Below are positions 4,939-64,000 of a stretch of DNA of 64,000 bases, in pieces; positions within the stretch are counted from its first letter, which is position 1, and each line of letters starts with the position of its first letter. The stretch is from Actinomycetota bacterium. GTDB lineage: Bacteria > Actinomycetota > UBA4738 > HRBIN12. The stretch is from positions 292-64,291 of the forward strand of contig DASTPT010000033.1 of assembly GCA_035762085.1 (NCBI GenBank). The letters run 5' to 3'. A program made the position numbers and the translations under genes. The notes beneath the pieces are model-generated. The model saw only the letters and a program-made list of their open reading frames with translations, was not told the origin of the DNA and did not search any database.

Positions 4939-6918
4939 GTGATCATGACGGACGGGGGACCTATCGGCGCTTCCACGGAACCCACCAGGCGGAGGCGTCG
5001 GAGGGGCCCTGTCCGGAGCGGGCTCGGCGCCGTCCTGCTGTCAGCGCTCCTCGTCGCCTCGCCCGTCACGGCCGGGGTGGCGGTCGGCGAGACCTCCGGA
5101 ACGTCCCGTGAGGACCCGAGCCGCACCGCCGTGCGGTCCCCATCGGACCGAGGTCGAACCGACGGGAGCGTGGCGACGACGCGATCCGAGCGCCGACAGC
5201 AGCGCAGGCTCGAGCGACGGGTCGCCCGGGAACTGCTCGCCGCCGCGGCGGCGGCCGTCCCGACCGAGACCGCCACGCTCGTTCGGGCCGTCGACACCTC
5301 CAAGTGGAACCCAGCGAGCCCCGACCCGTCCGGGGTGACCTACCGCCCATCGAGGGACCGCCTCATCGTCGTCGACTCGGAGGTGGACGAGCAGACCGGC
5401 GCGGGCTATCACGGGGTCAATCTCTGGGAGGTCACGCGCGCCGGCGTCGTCACGGACACGGGTACGACCCTGCCCTACACCAACGAGCCAACGGGGGTGG
5501 GGTTCGACCCCGCGACGGAGACGCTGTTCGTCTCCACCGACGTCGGGAACAAGATCTTCGTCGTCCGGGCCGGACCGGACGGTCGCTTCGGCACGTCCGA
5601 CGACACCCGGACCACGATCGACACGAAGGCGTACGGGCTCGGCGACACCGAGGACCCCGCGTACGACCCGGTGAGCGGCCATCTGTTCTTCGTGAACGGG
5701 ACGACGGCAGACGTGTACGACCTCGACCCCGTGAACGGGGTGTTCGGCGACGGCGACGACCGCATCAGCCATTTCGACGTGACGCAGTACGGGGCGCGCG
5801 ACACGGAGGGCCTCGCGTTGGATCCCGAGCGCGGCACGCTCTTGGTCGGCGATCGCCCCTCGGACAAGATCTTCGAGGTCACGAAGGCGGGAGCCCTGCT
5901 GCGCATCATCAACGTCGGCGGCATCGCCGGACTGCGCAGGATCTCGGGGCTCGGGGTCGCGCCGGCCACCGTCGGATCGGGGCTGCACTACTGGATCGTC
6001 GACCGTGCGGTCGACAACGGGCCGGATCCGAGGGAGAACGACGGCATGATGTTCGAGATCTCCGTGAGCGGCGGAGGCACGCCCGCGAACACACCGCCGA
6101 CGGTAAACGCCGGCCCGGACCAGACGGTGACGCTCCCGAGTCCCGCCACCCTGCAGGGGACCGTGAGCGACGACGGGCTGCCGGATCCGCCCGGGGCGAC
6201 GACGAGCGCGTGGTCGAAGGTGAGCGGGCCGGGGACCGTGGTCTTCGCCAACGCGTCCTCCGCGTCGACGAGCGCCACGTTCTCGACCGACGGCACGTAC
6301 GTGCTCCGGCTGACCGCCGACGACTCGGCCGCCCAGACCTCGGATCAGACGACGGTGACCGTCTTGCCCGAGGGCGGCGGCGGCCCCGGCGGCGTGATCG
6401 AAGTGCCCGTCTCGGTGGGAGCGGACGACGCCGAGGAGACGGCGGCGGGTCGGGTGCGGCCGGCGAGCTCCGACCTCGAGCTGGTTCAGGAGTCCACGAT
6501 CCAGACGGTCGGCCTGCGTTTCGACGGCGTGCCGATCCCGATCGGCGCGACCGTCACGAACGCCTACGTCCAGTTCCGCTCGGACGAGGTCGGGAGCGTC
6601 GCGACGTCCCTGGTCATCAGCGGCGAGGCGGCCGACGATGCGGCCCCGATCGTGAAGACCCTCCGGAACATCTCATCGCGGCAGCGGACCGCCTCGGCCG
6701 TCGGCTGGGAGCCTCCGCCGTGGCTCCAGAGGAATCTGGCCGGCGCCGATCAGCGGACGCCGAACCTCGCCGCGGTGATCCAGGAGATCGTGAGCCGAAC
6801 GGGCTGGACGTCGGGGAACGCCGTGGTCCTGATCGTCGAGGGGTCTGGCAAGCGAACGGCGGACTCGTTCGAAGGCTCGTGGGCACCGATCCTCCACGTC
6901 GAGTATCAGACCGGCTGA
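4939..6918 (+). CDS. Secreted multidomain protein: Arg-rich (Tat-like) signal peptide, phytase-like/SdiA-regulated-type beta-propeller, PKD-like Ig domain, and an unassigned ~170-aa C-terminal jelly-roll-like domain.
   Basis: 659 aa. N-terminus TRRRRRRGPVRSGLGAVLLSALLVASPVTAG. Repeated D(P/T)EG(I/L)A blade motifs (DTEGLALDPERGTLLVGD; YWIVDRAVDNGPDPRENDGMMFEISV). PKD-like block NAGPDQTVTLPSPATLQGTVSDDGLPDP...GTYVLRLTADD. Paralogous to the next two genes. Confidence 0.7.
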   Translation: MIMTDGGPIGASTEPTRRRRRRGPVRSGLGAVLLSALLVASPVTAGVAVGETSGTSREDPSRTAVRSPSDRGRTDGSVATTRSERRQQRRLERRVARELLAAAAAAVPTETATLVRAVDTSKWNPASPDPSGVTYRPSRDRLIVVDSEVDEQTGAGYHGVNLWEVTRAGVVTDTGTTLPYTNEPTGVGFDPATETLFVSTDVGNKIFVVRAGPDGRFGTSDDTRTTIDTKAYGLGDTEDPAYDPVSGHLFFVNGTTADVYDLDPVNGVFGDGDDRISHFDVTQYGARDTEGLALDPERGTLLVGDRPSDKIFEVTKAGALLRIINVGGIAGLRRISGLGVAPATVGSGLHYWIVDRAVDNGPDPRENDGMMFEISVSGGGTPANTPPTVNAGPDQTVTLPSPATLQGTVSDDGLPDPPGATTSAWSKVSGPGTVVFANASSASTSATFSTDGTYVLRLTADDSAAQTSDQTTVTVLPEGGGGPGGVIEVPVSVGADDAEETAAGRVRPASSDLELVQESTIQTVGLRFDGVPIPIGATVTNAYVQFRSDEVGSVATSLVISGEAADDAAPIVKTLRNISSRQRTASAVGWEPPPWLQRNLAGADQRTPNLAAVIQEIVSRTGWTSGNAVVLIVEGSGKRTADSFEGSWAPILHVEYQTG

Positions 6919-6934
6919 CCCTGCCGCGGCGGGG

Positions 6935-7843
6935 TTAGAACGAGATCTCGACCAGGATCCCGTCGTTCTCGTCGGGGTCGGCGGAGTTGTCCACGCGTCG
7001 GTCGACGATGTACAGGTGCTTGGCGTTCGAGTCGCTCGCCTTCCCCCAGGCGAGTCCTGCGGGGGAGTGCAGCTCGAGCGGGTCCCCGTTCTGCGTCACC
7101 TCGATCGTCTGGACGAGCGCACCCCTGATCGTGGTCTCCGTCACGTGCCAGTTCTGACGGTTGCTCACGATGAACAGCGTGTCGCTCGAGGGCCGGTACT
7201 CGATCCCCTCGGGATTCGGTTGGTTCAGGGCCGGCGTGTCCGTGTTGAAGCTCCTGACCCGGTCGTCGCCCTTCGGGCCCACACCGTCGAAGATGCCGTT
7301 GCGCCCCGGGCTCAACCGGAAGACCTTGGCGTCGGTCCCCTCGGAGATGAACAGGAAGCCGCCACCGAGGGCGACTCCCTCGGGGTCATTGCATCCGAAA
7401 CGCCTCGTGCCGAACGACCTGACCTTGTCGTCCCGCGTCCCGAACCTGCGGTCCTTCCCGGGGCGGACGAAGAAGATCTTGTCGATGTCGTCGTCGGAGA
7501 AGATCAGCTGCTTCTTCGTCGCGTCGAGGCCCGCGGGCTCCTTCGAGAACCTGGTCGTGGCGAACGTCTTGAGCAGCTCGCCCGTCCTCGAGACGATGAA
7601 GACGTTCTTCTTCTTCCACACCTTCGTCTCCTCGACCTCCGCGTCGGAGACGTAGATCTTGCCGCCGCGGAGCGCCACGCCGGAGGGGTCGGGGCTCGGC
7701 GGGTTGAACGCAGACGTTTCGATGACCTGGACGATGTCGGCCTGGACGGCGACGCCGGCAGATGCCGGACCAGCGGCCACGGCGGCGATGAACGGAACGG
7801 CCACCGCGACGATGAGCATGAGGTGGAGCGGGCGTGTGGGCAT
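6935..7843 (-). CDS. Secreted phytase-like/SdiA-regulated-type beta-propeller protein (paralog 2).
   Basis: 302 aa. Clear signal peptide MPTRPLHLMLIVAVAVPFIAAVAAGPASAGVAVQA. Motifs FNPPSPDPSGV, DPEGVALGGGFLFISEG, DPEGIEYRPSSDTLFIVSN, YIVDRRVDNSADPDENDGILVEISF shared with the paralogs. Confidence 0.75.
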   Translation of the reverse strand: MPTRPLHLMLIVAVAVPFIAAVAAGPASAGVAVQADIVQVIETSAFNPPSPDPSGVALRGGKIYVSDAEVEETKVWKKKNVFIVSRTGELLKTFATTRFSKEPAGLDATKKQLIFSDDDIDKIFFVRPGKDRRFGTRDDKVRSFGTRRFGCNDPEGVALGGGFLFISEGTDAKVFRLSPGRNGIFDGVGPKGDDRVRSFNTDTPALNQPNPEGIEYRPSSDTLFIVSNRQNWHVTETTIRGALVQTIEVTQNGDPLELHSPAGLAWGKASDSNAKHLYIVDRRVDNSADPDENDGILVEISF

Positions 7844-7911
7844 GTCGGCAGTCTACAAAATGCTCGTCGCGAGGCCTTCCTGGAGCGCGGATCGGCGGCC
7901 GCAGGCCGCGG

Positions 7912-8805
7912 CTAGAGCGCGACCTCGAAGACTCTGCCGTCGTTCTCGTCGGGGTCGGCCGCGTTGTCGACCCCGCGATCCGCGATCCAAAGGTGCTTCA
8001 CGTTCGGGCCGGTGCTTCCCGGTGCCCACGCCAGGCCGGCGGGGGAGTGGAGGCCGAACCCCGCGGTGTCGTACGTCGCGACGAGCCTGCCCCTGATCGT
8101 CACCTCGGTGATGTCGGAGTTCCGGCGGTTGCTCACCAGGAACACGGTGCCGCTTGAGGGGCGGTACTCGATCCCCTCCGGGTCCGGCTGGCCGAGGGTC
8201 TTCGTGTCGGATCGGCGGACGCGGTCATCGCCCGCCGGGGCGACCCCGTCGAAGATCCCGTTGGGGCCCGGCTTCAGCCGGAAGACCTCGGCCTTCGCCC
8301 CGTCCGCGATGAACAGGAACCCGCCGCCGAGCGCGATGCCTTCCGGGTCGCGCGAACCGAACGGCCGGGTCGCGAAGGACCGGACCTTGTCGTCCCTCGT
8401 ACCCCACTTGTGGTCCTTGCCCTTGCGGACGAAGAAGATCCGATCCCTGTCGTCGTCGGACACGATCAGCGTCTTCTTCCTCACCTCGAGGCCGGTGGGC
8501 TCGATCGAGAACCTCGTGGTCTTGAATGTGCTCAGGAGGTCGCCGTCGGGCCCGAACCTGAAGACGGTCTTGCCCTGGAACCACGGCGTCTCGTCCACCT
8601 CACAGTCGGACATCAGGAGCCTCCCGCCGCGCAGGACCGCCATGCCGGCGGGGTCGGGGCTCGGAGGCGAGAACGATGAGGTGTCGATGATCTGGATCAG
8701 CGTGGGTGCCTCGGGGACGCCGCCAGAGGCGGTTGGAAGGCCCCCGGCCACCATCCACGTCGTGGCCACCGTGAGGGCGAGCGCGCGGGCGATCGGGACA
8801 CGCAC
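7912..8805 (-). CDS. Secreted phytase-like/SdiA-regulated-type beta-propeller protein (paralog 3). Start uncertain: a GTG giving signal peptide VRVPIARALALTVATTWMVAGGLPTASGG (8805) versus an internal ATG at 8754.
   Basis: Motifs FSPPSPDPAGM, DPEGIALGGGFLFIADG, DPEGIEYRPSSGTVFLVSN, LWIADRGVDNAADPDENDGRVFEVAL. The track ORF extends to 9027 but the upstream part shows no signal peptide. Confidence 0.65.
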   Translation of the reverse strand: MRVPIARALALTVATTWMVAGGLPTASGGVPEAPTLIQIIDTSSFSPPSPDPAGMAVLRGGRLLMSDCEVDETPWFQGKTVFRFGPDGDLLSTFKTTRFSIEPTGLEVRKKTLIVSDDDRDRIFFVRKGKDHKWGTRDDKVRSFATRPFGSRDPEGIALGGGFLFIADGAKAEVFRLKPGPNGIFDGVAPAGDDRVRRSDTKTLGQPDPEGIEYRPSSGTVFLVSNRRNSDITEVTIRGRLVATYDTAGFGLHSPAGLAWAPGSTGPNVKHLWIADRGVDNAADPDENDGRVFEVAL

Positions 8806-19708: not shown

Positions 19709-21898
19709 GTGGCCACCGTTTCCCCCCTGCTCGAGTCCCTGAACCCCGTTCAGAGCGAGGCCGTCCTGCACACCGAGGGGCCGGTCCTGATCGTCGCGGG
19801 CGCGGGATCGGGCAAGACCCGGGCGCTCACCCACCGGATCGCGTACCTGATCCGCGAGCACGGGGTGAGCCCGTACGCGATCCTCGCGATCACGTTCACG
19901 AACAAGGCCGCGCGCGAGATGGCCGAGCGCGTCGAGGGCCTCCTCGGCCAGCGCATCGCGAGCGGCATGTGGATCCTGACGTTCCACTCGGCGTGCGCCC
20001 GGATCCTCCGCCGCGAGCACGAGCACCTCGGCCTGCCGAGCAGCTTCACGATCTACGACGACGGCGACACCGAGCGCCTGATCGCCGGTGTCCTGAGGGA
20101 CCTGAACCTGGATCCGAAGCGCTTCCCGCCCCGCGCGATGGCCGCCGCGATCGGTCGGGCGAAGGACCACGTGGTCTCGGCCGGCGAGTTCGCGGGGGCG
20201 GCCGGCAACTTCTACGAGCAGACGATCGCGAGGGTCTACGCGGCCTACGAGGAGCGCAAGCTCGCGGCGGGCGCGCTCGACTTCGACGACCTCATCGCGG
20301 AGGTCGTGCGGCTGTTCCGCGAGCATCCCCCCGTGCTCGAGCACTATCAGGAGTGGTTCCGCTACATCCTGGTGGACGAGTACCAGGACACGAACCGCGC
20401 GCAGTACCAGCTGGTGAACCTGCTGGCGGCGAAGTACCGGAACGTCTGCGTGGTGGGCGACGCCGATCAGGGCGTGTACTCGTGGCGCGGCGCGACGATC
20501 CAGAACCTCCTTGACTTCGAGCGCGACTACCCCGACGCCGCGGTGTTCCTGATGGAGCAGAACTACCGCTCCACGTCGAACATCCTGGCGGTCGCGAACG
20601 CGCTGATCCAACACAACCTCCAGCGGAAGCCGAAGAGCCTGTGGACCGAGACCGAGGGCGGCGAGCTCGCGGTCCGCTTCCGCGCCGACAACGAGCACGA
20701 GGAGGCGCTGTTCGTCGCCGAGGAGACGCACCGGCTCGTCGAGGAGGAGGGGTTCCGGTACGCGGAGGTCGCCGTGTTCTACCGGACGAACGCGCAGAGC
20801 CGCGTGCTCGAGGACGTGTTCATGCGGGCCGGCACGCCCTACCGGGTGGTCGGCGGCGTCCGGTTCTACCAGCGCAAGGAGATCAGGGACGTGCTCGCGT
20901 ACCTGCGGGTCCTCGTGAACCCGCAGGACGTGATCGGCGCCCGGCGGGTCGTCAACACGCCGAAGCGCGGGATCGGCGACCAGACCGTCGCGGCGCTCGA
21001 GGGCTTCGCGGCCGTCGAGGCGATCTCGTTCCTGGAAGCCTGCCGGCGCGTGGACGAGATCGCCACGCTCCAGCCGCGGGCGAAGGGCGCGGTCGCGGGG
21101 TTCGTCGGCGTGATGGACCGCCTCCACGAGGCGCTCGACTCCGGCGCCGGACCGCAGCGCATGGTCGAGGCCGCCGCGACCGAGTCGGGCTACCTGCTCG
21201 AGCTCGAGGCCGAGCGCACCGTCGAGGCCGAGGGACGGATCGAGAACATCCGGGAGCTCGGCGGCGTGGCGGCCGAGTTCGAGGCACGGTTCCCCGGGGG
21301 GGAGCTCACGGACTTCCTCGAGTCCATCTCGCTGGTCTCGGAGCAGGACGAGTACGACGAGGAAGCGGGCAGCGTCACGCTCATGACGCTGCACATCGCG
21401 AAGGGGCTGGAGTTCCCGGTCGTGTTCATCATCGGGATGGAGGACGGCGTCTTCCCCCACTACCGCTCGATGGGGGACCAGGCCGAGCTGGAGGAGGAGC
21501 GTCGGCTCGCCTACGTCGGCATCACCCGGGCGCAGCGACGTCTCTACCTGTGCCACGCGTGGAGCCGCACGCTGTTCGGGACGACCTCGTACAACCCGCC
21601 GTCGCGGTTCCTCGGCGAGATCCCGGGCGAGCTCCTGCGGTCGCTCGAGGGCGATGAGGAGGAGGGAGGGTCGATCATCGGGGCCGGTGGGCGCTCCCCC
21701 ATCCGCGAGGCCGTGATCACCGGCCGGCGCGAGCCGTTGCAGATCGGCGCCGGCGACACCGTCCTGCACGACAAGTGGGGGGAAGGGGTGGTCCTGGACG
21801 TGAGCGGCATGGGCGCCGACGCCGAGGCGACCGTTCGCTTCGAGGAGGCGGGGGAGAAACGGCTCCTGTTGGCGTACGCTCCGCTCCGCAAGGGATGA
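19709..21898 (+). CDS. pcrA: ATP-dependent DNA helicase PcrA/UvrD family.
   Basis: 729 aa. LIVAGAGSGKTRALTHRIAYL, ILAITFTNKAAREM, helicase motifs throughout. GTG start with TAGAAT hexamer 6 nt upstream and no RBS. Confidence 0.92.
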   Translation: MATVSPLLESLNPVQSEAVLHTEGPVLIVAGAGSGKTRALTHRIAYLIREHGVSPYAILAITFTNKAAREMAERVEGLLGQRIASGMWILTFHSACARILRREHEHLGLPSSFTIYDDGDTERLIAGVLRDLNLDPKRFPPRAMAAAIGRAKDHVVSAGEFAGAAGNFYEQTIARVYAAYEERKLAAGALDFDDLIAEVVRLFREHPPVLEHYQEWFRYILVDEYQDTNRAQYQLVNLLAAKYRNVCVVGDADQGVYSWRGATIQNLLDFERDYPDAAVFLMEQNYRSTSNILAVANALIQHNLQRKPKSLWTETEGGELAVRFRADNEHEEALFVAEETHRLVEEEGFRYAEVAVFYRTNAQSRVLEDVFMRAGTPYRVVGGVRFYQRKEIRDVLAYLRVLVNPQDVIGARRVVNTPKRGIGDQTVAALEGFAAVEAISFLEACRRVDEIATLQPRAKGAVAGFVGVMDRLHEALDSGAGPQRMVEAAATESGYLLELEAERTVEAEGRIENIRELGGVAAEFEARFPGGELTDFLESISLVSEQDEYDEEAGSVTLMTLHIAKGLEFPVVFIIGMEDGVFPHYRSMGDQAELEEERRLAYVGITRAQRRLYLCHAWSRTLFGTTSYNPPSRFLGEIPGELLRSLEGDEEEGGSIIGAGGRSPIREAVITGRREPLQIGAGDTVLHDKWGEGVVLDVSGMGADAEATVRFEEAGEKRLLLAYAPLRKG

Positions 21899-23157
21899 GA
21901 CGCCACCGTCGACACGGCGTGCCCGCGCTGACGCTCCTGGCGGGCGTCGTGGTCTCGTGCGGCTCGGTGGAGGCGTCGTTCCCCCGTTCGGAGCGCGCCG
22001 CCGCGACGTTCGAGCTCGCAGCCGTGGCCGCCGAGGCCTGCACGATCTCGGGCACCGGGGGCGACGACGTCCTGCGGGGCACGTCGCAGGGCGACACGCT
22101 GTGCGGGCTCGGCGGCCACGACGTCCTGATCGGGCGCGGAGGAGGCGACACGCTGATCGGCGGCCCGGGGAGCGACGGGCTCTACGGCGGCGGCGGCGCG
22201 GACTCGCTCGACGGCGGCGGCGACATCGACCTCCTCGACGGAGGGCCGCGCCGCGATGCCTTGGACGGTGGCGCCGGTGGCGACCGGTGCGACCCGAAGC
22301 AGCACGACCGCGCGACCAGCTGCTGGGGGCCCGGATCGTCCCCCGTGATCGCCGCGGCCGGCGACATCGTCTGCGCCCCGGGCGCCTCGCCCAGCGAGAC
22401 CGCGTGTCAGCACGAGGCGACGTCGAAGCTGCTCGCTCGGCGCGACCCCTGGCTCGTCCTCACGCTCGGCGATAACCAGTACGAGGACGGAGCCCTCGAG
22501 GACTTCCGGCGGTCCTACTCGGCGTCGTGGGGGCGCGTGAAGGCGATCACGCGACCCTCGGTCGGCAACCACGACTACCACGTCGCCGGCGCCGGGGACT
22601 ACTTCTCGTACTTCGGCCCGCCCGCGGGCCGGCGCGGCAGGGGGTACTTCAGCTTCGACGTCGGCGATTGGCACGTGGTCGCGCTCAACTCGAACTGCGG
22701 CGAGGTCGGCGGCTGCGAGAGGGGGTCGCGCCAGGAGAGGTGGCTCCGGCAGGACCTGGCCGCGCATCCATGGACGTGCACCCTCGCCTACTGGCACCAC
22801 CCGAGGTTCTCCTCGGGGCTCCACGGCAACAGCGCGGCCTCGGCCGCCTTCTGGCGGGCCCTGTACGACGCCGGCGCCGACGTCGTCCTGAACGGGCACG
22901 ACCACACGTACGAGCGGTTCGCACCGCAGGATCCGAGGCAACGCCCCGATGGCAACGGCATCCGGGAGTTCGTCGTCGGGACCGGTGGCCGGAACCTCTA
23001 CGCGTTCGGTGGTCCGGAGCCCAACAGCCAGGTCCGCAACAACCACACGTTCGGCGTGCTCGAGCTCACGCTGCGCGCCGACGGCTACGACTGGCGGTTC
23101 CTGCCCGCCGCGGGCGGCTCGTTCGAGGACTCGGGCAGCGACACGTGTAGCGCATGA
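21895..23157 (+). CDS. Lipoprotein: N-terminal RTX/hemolysin-type Ca-binding Gly-Asp repeats fused to a calcineurin-like metallophosphoesterase (purple-acid-phosphatase-like) domain.
   Basis: ATG overlaps the pcrA stop (ATGA). MRRHRRHGVPALTLLAGVVVSCGS. Repeats GGDDVLRGTSQGDTLCGLGGHDVLIGRGGGDTLIGGPGSDGLYGGGGADSLDGG. MPE motifs GDNQYEDG, GNHDY, VLNGHDHTYER. Confidence 0.75.
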   Translation: MRRHRRHGVPALTLLAGVVVSCGSVEASFPRSERAAATFELAAVAAEACTISGTGGDDVLRGTSQGDTLCGLGGHDVLIGRGGGDTLIGGPGSDGLYGGGGADSLDGGGDIDLLDGGPRRDALDGGAGGDRCDPKQHDRATSCWGPGSSPVIAAAGDIVCAPGASPSETACQHEATSKLLARRDPWLVLTLGDNQYEDGALEDFRRSYSASWGRVKAITRPSVGNHDYHVAGAGDYFSYFGPPAGRRGRGYFSFDVGDWHVVALNSNCGEVGGCERGSRQERWLRQDLAAHPWTCTLAYWHHPRFSSGLHGNSAASAAFWRALYDAGADVVLNGHDHTYERFAPQDPRQRPDGNGIREFVVGTGGRNLYAFGGPEPNSQVRNNHTFGVLELTLRADGYDWRFLPAAGGSFEDSGSDTCSA

Positions 23158-23861
23158 CGCCGCTGTTCGACCTCGCCCGCTCCGACTGCGAGCGCACGGG
23201 CGCGGGCCTGCTCGCCCAGCCGGTCAACACGGTCTCGAGCCTGACCTATCTGCTGGTGGGGCTGTGGATCCTCGGGCTCTCGGCCAGGTCCCCGGGTCGG
23301 CGGGTCGAGCTGGCGGTCTTCGGCGTGGCGGTCGCGCTGAACGCCGTCGGGGGCCTCGCGTTCCACGGCGTGCAGGCGTGGGGGGCGCGCTGGATCCACG
23401 ACGTCTCGATCGTCGCGGTGCTGGGGTTCGTCGTGGCGTTCGGCGTCGCCCGGCTCCTCGACCGCCCGACGCGGTGGACGATGACGGCCTTCGGGATCGG
23501 CCTGGCGGCGCTCGGCGCGGTGATCGCGCTGTGGCCGGGGACGGTGCAGGGGCTCTCGGGGGTGCTGGCCGTGGCCGCCGGCGCGACCGAGGTCGTCGAG
23601 TACCGGCACGAGATGCCCGGTCTCCGGCGCGAGGGCTTCTCGGCTCGCCGCCTCGCGCGGCTGTCGGTGCTGGCGGTGCTCGGTCTGGCCTCGGCGGCCT
23701 TCCTCGTCGGCCGGACCGACGCCTGGCTCTGCAACCCCGACAGCACGTTCCAGTGGCACGCGATCTGGCACGCGCTCTCGGCCGCGGCGATGGGGCTGTA
23801 CGCGTACGGTGCGATCGAGCCGCACCCGGCGCCGCCGGCTAGTGCAGCTCGAGCCGCCTGA
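23154..23861 (+). CDS. Polytopic membrane protein with conserved His in TM helices (ceramidase/PAQR-like fold is a guess).
   Basis: 235 aa. ATGA overlap with the upstream gene. Motifs AFHGVQAW and FQWHAIWHALSA. 6-7 TM segments. Confidence 0.5.
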   Translation: MTPLFDLARSDCERTGAGLLAQPVNTVSSLTYLLVGLWILGLSARSPGRRVELAVFGVAVALNAVGGLAFHGVQAWGARWIHDVSIVAVLGFVVAFGVARLLDRPTRWTMTAFGIGLAALGAVIALWPGTVQGLSGVLAVAAGATEVVEYRHEMPGLRREGFSARRLARLSVLAVLGLASAAFLVGRTDAWLCNPDSTFQWHAIWHALSAAAMGLYAYGAIEPHPAPPASAARAA

Positions 23862-24325: not shown

Positions 24326-25321
24326 TCACCCCGCGGGAACGGGGTCGGGCAGCGGGTCGTTCCGCTCGAACGCGGTGATGTTCGCGAGGGTCGTGTCGGC
24401 GATCTCGCGGAGCGCCTGCTCCGTGAAGAACCCCTGGTGGGCGGTGATCAGCACGTTCGGGAACGTCAGCAGCCGCATCAGGACGTCGTCGAGGATGATG
24501 CGCGCCGACAGGTCCTCGAAGAACAGGCCCGCCTCCTCCTCGTACACGTCGAGCCCGAGCGCGCCGATCCGCTCGGACTTCAGGCCCTCGATGACGGCGG
24601 CGGTGTCGACGAGCCCACCCCGGCTCGTGTTGATCAGGACGGTCCCGGGTTTCATCGTCCCGACCGCGCGGGCGTCGATCAGGTGGTGCGTCGCCGGCGT
24701 GAGCGGGCAGTGCAGCGAGATGACGTCCGAGGTGCGAAGCAGGTCGCCGCAGTCGACGTAGCCCACGCCCTCGGCTCGGAGCTCCTCGTTCGGCTTTGGA
24801 TCGAAGGCGATGACCCGGCAGCCGAACCCCAGCATGATGCGGGCGAACGCCCGGCCGATCGCCCCGGTGCCGACGACGCCGACCGTCCGCCCGTGCAGTC
24901 CGGCGCCGAGCAGGCCGTCGAGCGCGAAGTTGCCTTCGCGCACACGCACGTAGGCGCGGTGAACCTTGCGGTCGAGCGCCAGGATCAGGGCGGCGGCGTG
25001 CTCGGCGACGGCGTGCGGCGAGTACGCGGGGACGTGCGTCACCGCAAGGCCGAGCCGGGCGGCCGCCTGGACGTCGACGTGGGTGTAACCGGCCGAACGG
25101 AGCGCGAGCATCCGGGTGCCGCCGTCGGCGAGCCGCTGGATGACCTTGTCGCTCAGCTCGTCGTTCACGAACGGGCACAGGACGGGGAAGCCGTCGGCGA
25201 GCGAGACCGTCTCGAGCGTGAGCCGGGGCTCGAGGAACACCAGCTCGTGGCCGAACCGGGCGTTCGCGGCCCCGAGGAAGTCGACGTCGTGGCGCTTCGC
25301 GCTGAAGACCGCGACCCGCAT
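24326..25321 (-). CDS. ldhA: D-isomer-specific 2-hydroxyacid dehydrogenase (D-lactate dehydrogenase-like).
   Basis: 331 aa. GVVGTGAIGRAFARIMLGFGCRVIAFD Rossmann, catalytic R...E...H region (TSRGGLVD, ITAHQGFFT). Confidence 0.8.
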   Translation of the reverse strand: MRVAVFSAKRHDVDFLGAANARFGHELVFLEPRLTLETVSLADGFPVLCPFVNDELSDKVIQRLADGGTRMLALRSAGYTHVDVQAAARLGLAVTHVPAYSPHAVAEHAAALILALDRKVHRAYVRVREGNFALDGLLGAGLHGRTVGVVGTGAIGRAFARIMLGFGCRVIAFDPKPNEELRAEGVGYVDCGDLLRTSDVISLHCPLTPATHHLIDARAVGTMKPGTVLINTSRGGLVDTAAVIEGLKSERIGALGLDVYEEEAGLFFEDLSARIILDDVLMRLLTFPNVLITAHQGFFTEQALREIADTTLANITAFERNDPLPDPVPAG

Positions 25322-25326
25322 GGCGT

Positions 25327-25493
25327 CAGCGGAAGAGAGCGATGTAGCCGGCCACGACGATCACCACGCCCGCGACGATCGGCGCGATGACCCACGCCAG
25401 GCCGAGGCGCCCCCGGTAGGGGCCCAGCGTCCCGACCTTCGTCGTGGGCTTCAGCCCCGGCGGTCGGAACCGGACGCGCTTGTTCCCGAACAT
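25327..25493 (-). CDS. Putative 55-aa single-TM membrane protein (MFGNKRVRFRPPGLKPTTKVGTLGPYRGRLGLAWVIAPIVAGVVIVVAGYIALFR).
   Basis: Hand-translated, below the track cutoff. GGTGGGA upstream of the ATG. Ends 3 bp downstream of ldhA on the same strand. Confidence 0.35.
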
Positions 25494-25506
25494 CCCACCG
25501 AGTATC

Positions 25507-26844
25507 TCAGCCGACCACCCGATACAGGTGCCAGCGGTCGGGGACGCCCTTCAGTTCGTGCTCGCCGGCGTCCTCGAAGACCAGCCCCGAGCCCGCCACG
25601 AGGTCCTTGACGGTGCGCGATACCACGACCGTTGACGGGTTCGCTGTGGCGCAGATCCGCGCCCCGATGTGCACAGCGATCCCACGCACCGCGTCGCCGT
25701 CGACCTCGACCTCCCCCGTGTGCACGCCCGCCCGGATCTCGATCCCAAGGTCGCGGACGGCGTCCGCGATCGCTCGGGCGCACTGGACCGCTCGTGCCGG
25801 TCCGTCGAAGGTGGCGAGGAACCCGTCGCCGGCGGTGTCGATCTCGCGCCCCCGGTGCCTCGCGAGCTCGCCTCGTGCCCTCGCGTGATGTGCAGCGAGC
25901 AACTCCTTCCAGGCACGGTCCCCGAGCGCTGCGGCCTGCTCGGTCGAGCCCACGATGTCGGTGAACAGGACCGTGGTCAAGATCCGGTCCGCGTGCTCGC
26001 GGGGGTGGAGTCGGGAGACGAACCCGCGGACAGCTGCCATGAACGCCTCGTGGGTCTCGTCGTCGACCCACGTGAACTCGCCGCGCATGCTCGAGAGCTC
26101 GCGGAGCTCGGCGCGGCGGATGTGGCGGGCCACGAACTCGGCCGGCCCCCGCGCGTCGGGGGAGAACAGGACGAGCGTCGGAACGCGGACCGCGGGGAGC
26201 ACGTCCGAGACGTCGGCTTCCATCGACATCCGGTAGAAGGCCATCGCGGCACCGGGGGACAGGCTCCGACGCATGTGGACGACGAACCAATCGCGGAACG
26301 CCTCGTCATCGGCGACGCCCGGAGCCTGCGTCCTCAGCAGCTCGTGGAAATACGATCGCTCACCCCAGCGCTCCCGGACCTCTCGGAGTGTCTCGCGCCA
26401 CTCGGCCTCGGATGGGGCCCACGGGTAGTCGGGAGTGGGGCGTCCCTTGACGGAAGGCTTGAGCAGGATGAGCCCCGACGTCCGCTCGGGATAGGTGGCC
26501 GCGAAGAGGGTCGTGATCCGGCTTCCCTCCATCCCGCTCCACAGGACCGCGTGCTCCGAGCCGACCGCATCCATCACCGCCCGGACGTCGTCCATCCGGG
26601 TCTCGAGCGTCGGCACCCCGCCGACTCGGTCGGACAGGCCGGTGCCGCGCTTGTCGAGCATCAGGAGCCTGCCATCCTCGGCGAGCCCGAGAACATGGCG
26701 GACGAGGAGCGGCTGGTCCCACGTCGACAAGAGGTCGCCGGTGATCCCCCGGACGAACACGAGGTCGATCGGACCGTCCCCCACCACCTGATAGGCGATG
26801 CTGACCTCGCCGCTCCGGGCGTAGTGGACCTCGGGGACCTCCAT
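25507..26844 (-). CDS. Alpha/beta-hydrolase fused to class III adenylyl/guanylyl cyclase catalytic domain (LipJ/Rv1900c-like), copy 1.
   Basis: 445 aa. N-terminal hydrolase fold (MLDKRGTGLSD, HAVLWSGMEGS). C-terminal cyclase VLFTDIVGSTE...EIDTAGDGFLATF...GVHTGEVEV...AVHIGARI. Confidence 0.8.
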   Translation of the reverse strand: MEVPEVHYARSGEVSIAYQVVGDGPIDLVFVRGITGDLLSTWDQPLLVRHVLGLAEDGRLLMLDKRGTGLSDRVGGVPTLETRMDDVRAVMDAVGSEHAVLWSGMEGSRITTLFAATYPERTSGLILLKPSVKGRPTPDYPWAPSEAEWRETLREVRERWGERSYFHELLRTQAPGVADDEAFRDWFVVHMRRSLSPGAAMAFYRMSMEADVSDVLPAVRVPTLVLFSPDARGPAEFVARHIRRAELRELSSMRGEFTWVDDETHEAFMAAVRGFVSRLHPREHADRILTTVLFTDIVGSTEQAAALGDRAWKELLAAHHARARGELARHRGREIDTAGDGFLATFDGPARAVQCARAIADAVRDLGIEIRAGVHTGEVEVDGDAVRGIAVHIGARICATANPSTVVVSRTVKDLVAGSGLVFEDAGEHELKGVPDRWHLYRVVG

Positions 26845-26845
26845 G

Positions 26846-28213
26846 TCAGGCCACCACCCGGTAGAGACGCCAGCGGTCGGGCACGCCCTTCAGCTCGTGC
26901 TCGCCCGCGTCCTCGAAGGCGAGGCCGGAGCCCACCGTCAGGTCCTTCACCGTCGAGGAGACGAGCACCTCCGACGGTCGGGCGAGTCCGCCGATCCTCG
27001 AACCGATCACGACCGCGACGCCCCCGGCCTTGCCCGCGATCGTCTCGACTTCGCCCGTGTGGACGCCCGCCCGCACCTGCACCCCGAGCGACCGAACCGC
27101 GTCGGCGACCGACTGGGCGCACCGCACCGCCCTCGCCGGACCGTCGAACGTGGCGAAGAAGCCGTCGCCCGCCGTGTCCACCTCGATGCCCCGGTACCGG
27201 CTGAGGAACGAGCGGACGATCGCGTGATGCCGCTCCACGACGTCGCCCCAGCCTCGGTCGCCCAGCTCCGATGCCCTGGCCGTCGAGTCGACGATGTCCG
27301 TGAAGAGCACGGTCGCGAGCACGCGGTCGAGGGCGAGCTGCTCGGTCGCGAGCTCATCGACGAATGCCCGGATCTCCTCCACGACCTGGTCCTGTCTGCC
27401 GGGAGAGACCGGTGCCCAGTCGCCCGGCGGAAGGATCACGAGTCGGGAGGAGCCGACCATCCGCTCGGTGACGTCCCGCGCCTGCAGGACGACGTGCGAG
27501 TCCTCGCCCGGGTCGTGGCTCAGCACGGGACAGATGAGCAGGGTCGGTACGCTCACCGCGGGGAGGATCGCTCGCGCATCCGTCTCGTACCACATCTGCT
27601 CGAAGCGGACCGCCTCGCCCGGCGACATCGAGTACCGGAAGTACTTCGCGGCCCAGGCGACCCACTCCTCGTCGTCGGCGACCGAGGAGATGTCACCCCG
27701 AAGGAGCTCCTTCGCATACGCGTGGGTGCCCCAGGTGGTTCGGAACAACTCGACCGCCCGAGCCTCCTCCTCTGAGGGCCAGCCCCACGGGTAGTCGGGT
27801 GCCCAGGCCGTCCTCGCGTACGGTCCGATCCACACGAGACCCATCGTCCGGTCCGGGTACGTCGCCGCGAAGAACGAGGCCAGCGCCCCGCCCTCGCCCT
27901 CGCCGATCAGGACCACGCGCTCGGAGCCGACCGCGTCGAGGACCGCCCGCAGGTCGTCGGTACGGGTCTCGAGATCGGAGAGCGGCGACGCACGCTCGGA
28001 GAGCCCGCTCCCACGCTTGTCGAACCGGATCAGGCGTCCGATCGACGCGAGGTTCCGGTTGTACCTCGCCGCCCATGAGAGCTCGAGCTCGACCTCCACG
28101 TGCGTCGCGTAGCCACCGACGTACGCGATGTCGGGCGTTCCCTCGCCGACGGTCTGGTAGGCGATGTGCACCCCGTCGCGGGTGATCGCGTAGCGCGTGT
28201 CGGGGAGCTGCAT
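26846..28213 (-). CDS. Alpha/beta-hydrolase-class III cyclase fusion (LipJ-like), copy 2, tandem paralog.
   Basis: Internal [44 protein letters not shown]; cyclase [11 protein letters not shown]...[13 protein letters not shown]...GVHTGEVE. 1-nt gap to copy 1. Confidence 0.8.
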
Positions 28214-28230
28214 CCGCGTATCCTCCGCCG

Positions 28231-28242
28231 GGCCGTACGGCC
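28231..28242. promoter_or_regulatory. Perfect 12-bp palindrome GGCCGTACGGCC in the divergent region between LipJ-like copy 2 and the B12-binding-subunit gene, followed by a TAGACT hexamer ~10 nt before the ATG.
   Basis: Read directly from the sequence. Confidence 0.35.
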
Positions 28243-28285
28243 GTCGCAAGGGGGTCGGAGCCCCTCGGCTAGACTGGGCCGCGCC

Positions 28286-28690
28286 ATGGCAGCCAAGCAC
28301 CGCATCGTGATCGCGAAGCCCGGCCTCGACGGGCACGACCGAGGGGCGAAGATCGTCGCCCGGGCGCTGCGCGACGCCGGGTTCGAGGTCATCTACACCG
28401 GGCTGCACCAGACGCCGGAGCAGATCGTCGAGACCGCGATCCAGGAGGACGCGGACGCGGTCGGGCTGTCCCTACACTCGGGCGCGCATATGACGCTGTT
28501 CCCGAGGGTCGTGGCCGGCCTGCGAGAGCACGGCGTCGGCGAGGTGATCGTGTTCGGCGGCGGGATCATCCCGAAGGACGACGTGGCGAAGCTCGCCGAC
28601 GTCGGCGTCGAGCGCATCTTCACCCCGGGCGCGTCGACGCAGGAGATCGTCGACTGGCTCCGCGAGCGGCTCTCCGGTGTGGGGGCCTGA
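28286..28690 (+). CDS. Methylmalonyl-CoA-mutase-type cobalamin-binding small subunit (B12-binding domain protein).
   Basis: [39 protein letters not shown] (DxHxxG B12 motif)...GGGIIPKDD. Confidence 0.85.
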
Positions 28691-62921: not shown

Positions 62922-62954
62922 GGTCGCCGACCGGGCCGCTCGTATGCTGGCGCG

Positions 62955-64000
62955 GTGAGCCAGGCGGTGTGCGAGCGATGCGGCGCGCCACTGCCCGATG
63001 GCGCCCGGTTCTGCCCGTCCTGCGGGTTCCCCGTCGGCGCGCCGCCCCCCGAGGAGCGCAAGGTCGTCACGGTCATCTTCGTCGACCTCGTGGGCTCGAC
63101 GAAGCTCTCCTCGCGGATCGATCCCGAGCGCTACCGCGAGGTCCTCGCCGCCTACTACCGCGTCGTGAGCGAGGAGCTCGAGTCGCTCCGTGGCCGCGCG
63201 GTGAACCTGGCCGGCGACGCCGTCGTCGGCGTCTTCGGCATCCCGCAGGCGCACGACGACGACGCCCTGCGGGCCGTGCGCGCCGGGCTCGCGCTCGTCG
63301 ACCGCATCGGGCGGGTGGGCGAGGCGCTCGCGCTGCCCTCGCCGCTCCGGGTCCGCGTCGGGATCAACACCGGCCCGGTCGCGATCGGCTCCGAGGCCTC
63401 GGAGCAGGGGCTGCTGTTCGGCGCGACCGTGAACCTCGCGGCGAGGATCCAGCAGGCGGCCCGCCCCGGCGGGGTGCTGGTCGCCGAGACGAGCTGGCTG
63501 CTGACCGTCGAGCACGTTGAGTACGGCGAGCCCCTGCGGATCGAGGCCCGAGGGTTCGACGACGTCCCGACCGCGTGGCCGGCGCTGCGGCTGGCGCCAC
63601 GGACCTCGCGACGAACGATCCCGCTCGTGGACCGCCGGCGCGAGCTCCGGCTGCTGACCGACACCTTCGAGGGCGTGCGCGAGACGGCCCGCGGGCACCT
63701 GGTCACGCTGCTCGGCGAGCCCGGGATCGGCAAGAGCCGGGTGGCGCAGGAGTTCCTCGACCGACTGCCGGAGCCGACGACCGTGCTCGTCGGTCGCGCG
63801 AGCCCGTTCGGCGAGGACGTCACGTTCGCGCCGCTCGCGCAGATGCTCCTCGGCGTGATCGGCGAGGAAGCGGGCGCCACCGACGGACGCCTCCGCCAGG
63901 CTCTGGAGCGACTCGTCGAGGGGTGCTGCCCGCCGGAGGAGTCGGACACCGTCGCGGCGCGGCTCGGGATCGCGCTCGGCCTCGGCTCGAGGAGCCGGGA
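62955..64000 (+). CDS. Large regulatory protein, N-terminal part (extends past window): Zn-ribbon, class III adenylyl/guanylyl cyclase domain, AAA/NB-ARC ATPase P-loop.
   Basis: GTG start (~62955). CERCGAPLPDGARFCPSCG; VTVIFVDLVGSTKL...NLAGDAVVGVFG; LLGEPGIGKSRV. Confidence 0.7.
   Translation, partial: MSQAVCERCGAPLPDGARFCPSCGFPVGAPPPEERKVVTVIFVDLVGSTKLSSRIDPERYREVLAAYYRVVSEELESLRGRAVNLAGDAVVGVFGIPQAHDDDALRAVRAGLALVDRIGRVGEALALPSPLRVRVGINTGPVAIGSEASEQGLLFGATVNLAARIQQAARPGGVLVAETSWLLTVEHVEYGEPLRIEARGFDDVPTAWPALRLAPRTSRRTIPLVDRRRELRLLTDTFEGVRETARGHLVTLLGEPGIGKSRVAQEFLDRLPEPTTVLVGRASPFGEDVTFAPLAQMLLGVIGEEAGATDGRLRQALERLVEGCCPPEESDTVAARLGIALGLGSRSR

Follow-up and report, generated by a model that had tools for sequence, protein, structure and literature searches.

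Two adjacent LipJ-like hydrolase-cyclase fusion genes with non-canonical cyclase residues in an uncultured soil actinobacterium

Introduction

Class III nucleotide cyclases share a conserved catalytic domain, and the canonical adenylyl cyclases of this class are expected to act as homodimers with two active sites at the dimer interface (PMC4174876). In adenylyl cyclases, a Lys donates a hydrogen bond to N1 of adenine and an Asp accepts one from the 6-amino group, whereas in guanylyl cyclases the first of these positions is occupied by Glu and the second by Cys, Ser, Thr, His, Ala, or Gly (PMC4215837). The closest described system to the genes considered here is Rv1900c (LipJ) of Mycobacterium tuberculosis, in which an alpha/beta-hydrolase fold precedes a class IIIc cyclase domain, and which is described as an active cyclase carrying His in place of the transition-state Asn, taken to mean that this Asn is not required (PMC4886424; PMC4174876). 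In this study, we analyze two adjacent genes of the same architecture, copy 1 (25507..26844, minus strand; 445 amino acids (aa)) and copy 2 (26846..28213, minus strand; 455 aa), in a 64,000-nucleotide (nt) stretch of contig DASTPT010000033.1 (assembly GCA_035762085.1, Actinomycetota); this whole stretch is referred to below as the window. With moderate confidence, we read the two proteins as separate LipJ-like members, each with a hydrolase fold joined to a cyclase domain by a long helix, which are likely dimeric cyclases with dead, sensor-like N-terminal domains rather than an obligate pair.

Architecture and family membership

Both proteins contain an Abhydrolase_1/Hydrolase_4 match followed by a Guanylate_cyc match in Pfam, and the NCBIfam model NF058673 (bifunctional lipase/adenylate cyclase LipJ) is collinear with each of them from end to end, covering residues 2-442 of copy 1 and 2-452 of copy 2 with model positions 6-448 of 449. 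Among proteins of solved structure, Rv1900c (1ybt/1ybu) is the best relative of both cyclase domains, at 59% identity for copy 1 (E 1.5e-51) and 55% for copy 2 (E 1e-46), and the AlphaFold model of copy 2 (mean predicted local distance difference test score (pLDDT) 92.1, predicted template modeling score (pTM) 0.71) superposes on 1ybu_B with a template modeling (TM) score of 0.95 and a root-mean-square deviation of 1.0 Å. Another solved hydrolase-family cyclase domain, 3mr7, is a distant match that ranks sixth (E ~1e-7 to 1e-11). The fusion of Rv1900c/LipJ type proposed in an initial annotation of this DNA is thus borne out by domain models, full-length profile, and fold, and both copies are members of the Rv1900c/LipJ-like family of hydrolase-cyclase fusions in the broad sense.

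Neither copy, however, is a LipJ equivalog. Against NF058673, copy 1 scores 374.4 bits and copy 2 scores 331.2 bits, both far under the equivalog cutoff of 800, and the residue pattern points the same way: relatives whose cyclase domains are 80-84% identical to that of Rv1900c carry Asn/Asp/His at the first pocket, second pocket, and transition-state positions described below, whereas copy 1 carries Asp/Ala/His and copy 2 Asp/Lys/Val. The window copies share with Rv1900c the two-domain order, the cyclase fold, the metal-binding Asp pair, and the Arg, and the Lys of canonical adenylyl cyclases is not conserved in Rv1900c either. They differ from it in the pocket pair, which is Asn-Asp in Rv1900c, in the loop before the conserved G-x-A-V segment, which is four residues shorter in the window copies, and in genomic setting, since the window genes lie in variable tandem arrays of an uncultured soil actinobacterium. 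When the 1ybt cyclase-domain sequence was used as a query, only proteins of 143-282 aa that are 72-87% identical to it were retrieved, and full-length Rv1900c was not found; among the proteins from this search (P0391-P0510), a length of 255 aa recurs in many.

Active sites of the cyclase domains

Active-site columns were set by alignment to Rv1900c and Ma1120 together with a 348-sequence family alignment, and the base-specifying columns were taken from the engineered KDA-to-EGY mutant of Ma1120 (PDB 5d0g), in which they correspond to the Lys before x-x-G-D-G-F, the Asp eleven residues before the transition-state Arg (Arg minus 11), and the residue immediately preceding that Arg (Arg minus 1). 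The cyclase homology domain spans approximately residues 287-445 in copy 1 (25510..25986, minus strand) and 297-455 in copy 2 (26849..27325, minus strand). Both metal-binding Asp residues reported in the initial annotation are found in each copy (D296 and D340 in copy 1; D306 and D350 in copy 2), and the Arg is retained as R396 and R406, respectively. The Lys-Asp pair that specifies adenine in canonical adenylyl cyclases is absent from both: the Lys position, which is Lys in Ma1120 and Asn in Rv1900c, is occupied by Asp in copy 1 (D336, 25837-25839) and copy 2 (D346, 27176-27178), and the Asp position at Arg minus 11 by Ala in copy 1 (A385, 25690-25692) and Lys in copy 2 (K395, 27029-27031). 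Of the transition-state pair, the Arg is present, and the Asn at Arg minus 4 is replaced by His in copy 1 (H392, 25669-25671), as in Rv1900c, and by Val in copy 2 (V402, 27008-27010), which differs in this respect from Rv1900c. In none of the alignments does either copy have the canonical Lys, Asp, or Asn in its expected column, and the residue calls made earlier at the Lys and Asn positions hold; the Arg minus 11 position had been overlooked.

The homodimeric class III adenylyl cyclases Ma1120, Rv1625c, Rv1264, and CyaC have the same fold, two-metal Asp pair, and Arg, but where Ma1120 has its Lys and Asp, copy 1 has Asp/Ala and copy 2 has Asp/Lys, and the Asn is replaced as well. Residues N342 and H402 of Rv1900c, which occupy its Lys and Asn positions, were reportedly found by Sinha and colleagues in 2005 to be dispensable and to make no contact with substrate, and its guanylyl cyclase activity is said to be minor. 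On the residues that are retained, both copies are probably active cyclases. The product would be a 3',5'-cyclic purine nucleotide, most probably cyclic AMP (cAMP), possibly with a substantial or even dominant share of cyclic GMP (cGMP).

Pocket residues across the family

When 1.84 billion cluster representatives (clustered at 50% identity) were scanned in full by HMMER with copy 1 as the query, 4,483 clusters reached E<=1e-30. This count is a maximum for the family, since some of the clusters may match a single domain; the best 150 of the 4,483 are essentially all full-length fusions. Two word-indexed searches each gave at least 8,000 candidates. Relatives are seen in soil metagenome-assembled genomes of Actinomycetota, Chloroflexota, Rokubacteria/Methylomirabilota, and Proteobacteria. 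Residue frequencies are given below for 150 diverse representatives and for an alignment of 348 close relatives, in which two reference domains are included.

The catalytic core is strongly maintained in both sets, with the metal-binding Asp residues kept in 138 and 134 of the representatives and the Arg in 136 (approximately 90%), and with the metal Asp in 347/348 and the Arg in 348/348 of the close relatives. At the Asn position, His is found in 91 representatives, Asn in 10, and Val in 10, and Asp occupies the Lys position in 61/150 representatives and 327/348 close relatives. The non-canonical residues are therefore typical of the family and not special to the window pair. Pocket pairs among the representatives include Lys-Asp (33), Asp-Lys (31), Asn-Asp of the Rv1900c type (12), Asp-Arg (9), and Asp-Ala (3), so that an Asp...Lys/Arg pair occurs in about one quarter of them, as well as in most close relatives. 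Grouped by charge, 41 pockets are acid-base, 39 base-acid, 5 acid-acid, and none base-base, a covariation significant by Fisher's exact test (p = 6e-19, not corrected for phylogeny), and a rough neighbor-joining tree implies at least nine switches between the acid-base and base-acid classes.

Asp-Lys dominates the close relatives (259/348), and copy 2 therefore carries the local consensus at this pair. The Asp-Ala/His state of copy 1, in turn, is a recent derivative: copy 1 orthologues that are at least 84% identical share it, whereas those at 75-77% identity have Asp-Lys with Ser at the Asn position.

Substrate preference

The pocket composition raises the question of whether the Asp-Lys pair of copy 2 and the Asp-Ala pair of copy 1 alter the substrate, making these proteins guanylyl cyclases, cyclases of dual specificity, or cyclases of another nucleoside triphosphate (NTP) rather than adenylyl cyclases, an explanation that we regard as unlikely. 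Both pairs show a polarity like that of guanylyl cyclases, the columns concerned are confirmed as specificity positions by the Ma1120 mutant 5d0g, and the charge covariation across the family, with its repeated switches, is strong. The side chain of Asp is, however, shorter by one methylene than that of Glu in guanylyl cyclases, the Rv1900c residues at the Lys and Asn positions reportedly make no contact with substrate, and the covariation could instead reflect a structural salt bridge whose orientation is indifferent.

No description of an Asp-Lys pocket subclass was found in the searchable literature, a coverage that excludes most subscription journals. To our knowledge, no family member with this pair has been assayed, and the product of a large share of the predicted bacterial "adenylate cyclases" is therefore uncertain. 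A cultured betaproteobacterium, Variovorax gracilis J22R24, encodes a member (L048, 6001-7329) whose pocket is Asp-Lys, whose Asn position is occupied by His, and whose GASEGG and GADH hydrolase motifs are intact; with such a cultured host, the question of specificity is directly testable.

The N-terminal hydrolase-fold domains

The alpha/beta-hydrolase-fold domains comprise approximately residues 1-280 of copy 1 (26005..26844, minus strand) and 1-290 of copy 2 (27344..28213, minus strand). Alignment to the esterases 4uhc and 8v16 places Met105 (26530-26532) at the nucleophile position of copy 1, and in copy 2 this position is Gly106 (27896-27898), within a G-E-G-E-G-G motif that aligns with G-F-S-M-G of arylesterases. 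The catalytic His, which intact members present as G-x-D-H, is also missing: copy 2 reads G-D-W-A-P, with Trp266 (27416-27418), and the corresponding S-M-R-G-E-F-T-W segment of copy 1 contains no His and has Glu256 (26077-26079); the family His column was taken in copy 2 coordinates, as copy 1 has an insertion here. With neither the Ser nucleophile nor the His in place, the N-terminal domains cannot hydrolyze esters in the canonical way, and both are very probably dead as hydrolases. The esterase activity that the initial annotation had contemplated for them thereby loses its canonical catalytic basis. In this respect the pair is in the majority, for Ser and His are both kept in only 47/150 representatives and 121/346 close relatives.

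An extremely unlikely alternative is that both proteins combine esterase/lipase and cyclase activities, in line with the bifunctional annotation of LipJ. It draws on the full-length match to the NCBIfam model of that name, on the approximately one third of the family that keeps Ser and His, and on the appearance of LipJ in a list of characterized esterases (Kumari and Kaur 2021, as cited in PMC10865251). It is contradicted by Met and Gly in place of Ser and by the lack of His in both copies, by profile scores far below the equivalog cutoff, and by the fragments that share 80-84% identity with the cyclase domain of Rv1900c and themselves have Ala, Ser, or Val at the catalytic His column.

The inactive motifs are nevertheless conserved. 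Copy 1 orthologues keep Met and Glu at the two positions down to 75% identity, and the ratio of nonsynonymous to synonymous substitution rates (dN/dS) of this domain is 0.09-0.19. Relatives of copy 2 keep G-E/Q-G-E-G-G down to 66% identity and P-P-G-D-W/P down to 61%, the 61% relative having Phe at the nucleophile position. Mean identity among the representatives is 38% for the N-terminal domains and 53% for the cyclase domains, and Foldseek matches to the copy 2 domain include the PFE esterase and other aryl-esterases, haloperoxidases, and KAI2/D14, with target-normalized TM scores mostly of 0.8-0.88. A sensor role is favored because the domain is conserved yet diverges faster than the cyclase domain, and because its structural neighbors include KAI2/D14, although we place the probability that it is a ligand-binding, sensor, or regulatory module at about even. 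In such a role, the N-terminal domains, held by purifying selection, would gate the cyclase dimer. KAI2/D14 and RsbQ of Bacillus, which the N-terminal domains match by sequence at E ~1e-6 to 1e-3 and by fold at a TM score of approximately 0.8, likewise use an alpha/beta-hydrolase fold in signaling and not in metabolism, a likeness of functional analogy only: the Ser-His-Asp triad is intact in KAI2, D14, and RsbQ, which hydrolyze their ligand, whereas the window copies lack Ser and His and are fused covalently to their output domain.

Gene junction, dimer organization, and integrity

On the coding strand, the two genes are joined by TGAcATG (26842..26848, minus strand), in which the copy 2 stop codon (26846-26848) is followed by a single nucleotide and the copy 1 ATG, exactly the 1-nt spacing of adjacent paralogues stated in the initial annotation; the stop codon of copy 1 lies at 25507-25509. 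The copy 2 reading frame could extend to a GTG at 28408 (26846..28408), its earliest start, and yields 455 aa from the ATG at 28213. We place the start at 28213 because a GGAGGA ribosome-binding site (28221..28226, minus strand) lies 7 nt upstream of this ATG, the N-termini of homologues align there, and a 99%-identical protein from an independent sample is called with the same 455 aa. The GC content at third codon positions (GC3) is 0.89 in both frames, in a window of approximately 71% GC, which fits coding sequence. Open reading frames (ORFs) on the plus strand opposite the two genes (25669-27204, 511 aa; 26843-27775, 310 aa) were rejected as shadow ORFs of high-GC DNA with no supporting homology, and the minus-strand frames are favored by homology and by the GC3 signature. 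At this spacing, the pair is probably transcribed together and coupled in translation; a scan of 25200-28500 for sigma-70 promoters and intrinsic terminators found none, a scan that is uninformative for a high-GC actinobacterium.

Aligned over their full length, the two proteins are 49% identical (E 7e-134), with 38% identity in the N-terminal domain and 67% in the cyclase domain. With cyclase domains 55-59% identical to that of Rv1900c and a TM score of 0.95, each would be expected to dimerize through this domain as Rv1900c does, so that at each interface site one chain would contribute the two metal-binding Asp residues and the other the purine-pocket pair and the Arg. It is also conceivable, as the initial annotation suggested, that the copies form an obligate or preferential heterodimer with one catalytic and one regulatory site, in the manner of mammalian C1/C2, where two related cyclase domains are likewise encoded next to each other. 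The adjacency of the genes on one strand with probable translational coupling, the steric plausibility of a mixed dimer at 67% identity, the different residues of the copies at the pocket and Asn positions, and the half-of-sites asymmetry shown by Rv1900c itself (PMC4174876; PMC5699072) are all compatible with such an arrangement. In mammalian C1/C2, however, the two domains divide the catalytic residues between them in complementary fashion, whereas each window copy retains both metal-binding Asp residues together with the Arg and there is no complementary degeneration. The partner is not conserved either: the closest genome has a different upstream paralogue (52% identical to copy 2) and others have none or another one, copy 1 orthologues lack an upstream partner in loci L082, L001, and L002, and a relative of copy 2 occurs alone. 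With neither complementary residue loss nor co-conservation of the genes, an obligate or preferential heterodimer is very unlikely, although occasional heterodimerization may occur.

A further, highly improbable explanation is that one or both copies are decaying or inert pseudo-cyclases. Each copy lacks three of the six canonical cyclase residues, close relatives of copy 2 are few, and a frameshifted variant of it exists in another sample. This metagenomic protein (P0124), approximately 89% identical to copy 2 in the N-terminal domain, loses the reading frame precisely where the cyclase domain starts, and its remaining sequence matches an alternative frame (window ORF 27007-27357); it is either a frameshifted pseudogene or the product of a sequencing error. 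Against decay stand the intact frames with a coding GC3 signature, the retained Asp pair and Arg, and a dN/dS of 0.10-0.15 for the copy 1 cyclase domain compared with its three closest orthologues (rising to 0.32 compared with the 75-77% orthologues). For copy 2, the 99% identity with the protein from an independent sample and the persistence of motifs down to 61-66% identity argue in the same direction.

Some points weigh against reading the pair as two separate dimeric cyclases with inactive, sensor-like N-terminal domains. Activity and product are extrapolated from Rv1900c, whose cyclase domain is 55-59% identical and carries an Asn-Asp pair. The 1-nt gap and the probable coupling are compatible with joint synthesis and mixing of the two proteins. 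Given the esterase listing of LipJ and the bifunctional name used by NCBI, a non-canonical hydrolytic activity of the N-terminal domains is conceivable. Finally, among the approximately 45 likely genes of the window that were scanned with Pfam, no cyclic-nucleotide-binding effector was found, nor was a ligand or a phosphodiesterase partner identified.

Genomic context and turnover of paralogues

The window represents chromosomal core, with groEL, guaA, a sortase gene, pcrA/uvrD, sucCD, purN, purH, folD, and genes for citrate synthase, malate dehydrogenase (mdh), fumarase, and succinate dehydrogenase (sdh). The two fusion genes occupy an islet within it. On one flank, a gene for a B12-binding domain (28286-28690, plus strand) is divergent from copy 2 across a 72-bp gap, and sucC and sucD come next. 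On the opposite flank, a conserved ORF of 55 aa, MFGNKRVRFRPPGLKPTTKVGTLGPYRGRLGLAWVIAPIVAGVVIVVAGYIALFR (25326..25493, minus strand), begins 13 nt downstream of copy 1, followed by a D-2-hydroxyacid dehydrogenase gene (24326-25321, minus strand) and a PNPOx-like gene. The product of the 55-aa ORF has a basic N-terminus and a hydrophobic segment resembling a single membrane span, and has no match in NCBIfam; it is 76-95% identical in L001, L002, L003, L006, L008, L081, and L082, where it always marks the distal end of the islet.

At the same syntenic site, an orthologue of copy 1 is present in 8/8 genomes, namely the window and seven others (73-91% identical), accompanied by zero to three other full-length paralogues upstream or downstream. 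In L081, which holds the 91% orthologue, the upstream slot is occupied by a different paralogue (6653-7999), 52% identical to copy 2, with an Asp-Arg/Val site and intact Ser and His motifs (GVSEGG, GVH), joined to the next gene by the same type of junction (TGAcGTG); this suggests either differential loss from an older array or a cassette-like replacement. L082 has no upstream fusion; downstream come a short-chain dehydrogenase/reductase gene, two additional fusions, and a cyclase domain that stands alone. L001 has three downstream paralogues, and L006 an upstream paralogue with a Lys-Asp pocket. No second fusion lies within the locus in L002 and L008, and in L003 none is found downstream, the contig ending just upstream of the gene, so that the upstream slot is not assessable. 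The copy 1 orthologue of L008 (6001-7334) aligns in two pieces (6001-7089 and 7164-7334) and may be interrupted or frameshifted. A PIN/RHH toxin-antitoxin pair is situated within the same islet in L081 (9340-9968) and L082 (14108-14742), in place of which the window has the D-2-hydroxyacid dehydrogenase gene.

Close relatives of copy 2 are few, comprising one protein at 99% identity, two fragments at 87-89%, and one at 66%, with the remainder at 61% or less; the 66% relative is a singleton adjoining polysaccharide-synthesis genes. Across the family, 14/80 loci contain between two and four copies in a 6-kb span, for the most part a few nt apart, with intact and dead hydrolase domains mixed. Neither copy 1 nor the upstream paralogue of L081 shares with copy 2 a tract of raised synonymous identity that would indicate recent gene conversion. 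Taken together, the variable companions, the singleton relative of copy 2, and the lack of gene conversion show that the pair is neither a recent duplication nor a conserved two-gene module, and the initial description of the pair as tandem duplicated does not hold in the sense of a recent event, as each copy has closer relatives elsewhere and the corresponding slot of L081 holds a different paralogue. Judged by synteny, copy 1 is the conserved resident of a variable islet and copy 2 a lineage-specific accessory paralogue.

Other features of the window

A third class III cyclase, of different architecture, is encoded at 62922-64000 (plus strand) and runs off the end of the window. It has an N-terminal zinc ribbon, CERCGAPLPDGARFCPSCG, followed by the cyclase domain and a P-loop ATPase (GEPGIGKS). 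In the cyclase domain, the Lys position holds Asn, while the transition-state Asn and Arg are canonical (GATVNLAARI). Among NCBIfam models, the TOMM kinase/cyclase fusion matches the protein best, at a score far under the cutoff. Elsewhere, a calcineurin-like metallophosphoesterase with RTX-type calcium-binding repeats in its N-terminal region (21775-23157, plus strand) adjoins a gene for a ceramidase/HlyIII-like membrane protein (23154-23861).

Implications for the family

That the archetype Rv1900c tolerates non-canonical residues is already known, and both window genes are ordinary members of a very abundant family. Beyond the original observation, two kinds of purine pocket divide the family, the canonical Lys-Asp and its mirror image Asp-Lys/Arg, and the paired residues covary strongly. 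In most members, the hydrolase domain lacks the catalytic Ser and His and is conserved all the same, which points to a sensor role and against the propagated label of bifunctional lipase/cyclase, and the locus itself displays the turnover of signaling paralogues in a fixed chromosomal slot. Quite speculatively, the Asp...Lys/Arg pocket, the mirror of Lys...Asp, could mark a large subclass of class III cyclases with inverted polarity that prefer GTP or another NTP, in which dead hydrolase domains would serve as non-hydrolyzing receptors for small molecules, diversified through tandem arrays. If such a preference for GTP were real, cGMP-type signaling would be common among soil bacteria.

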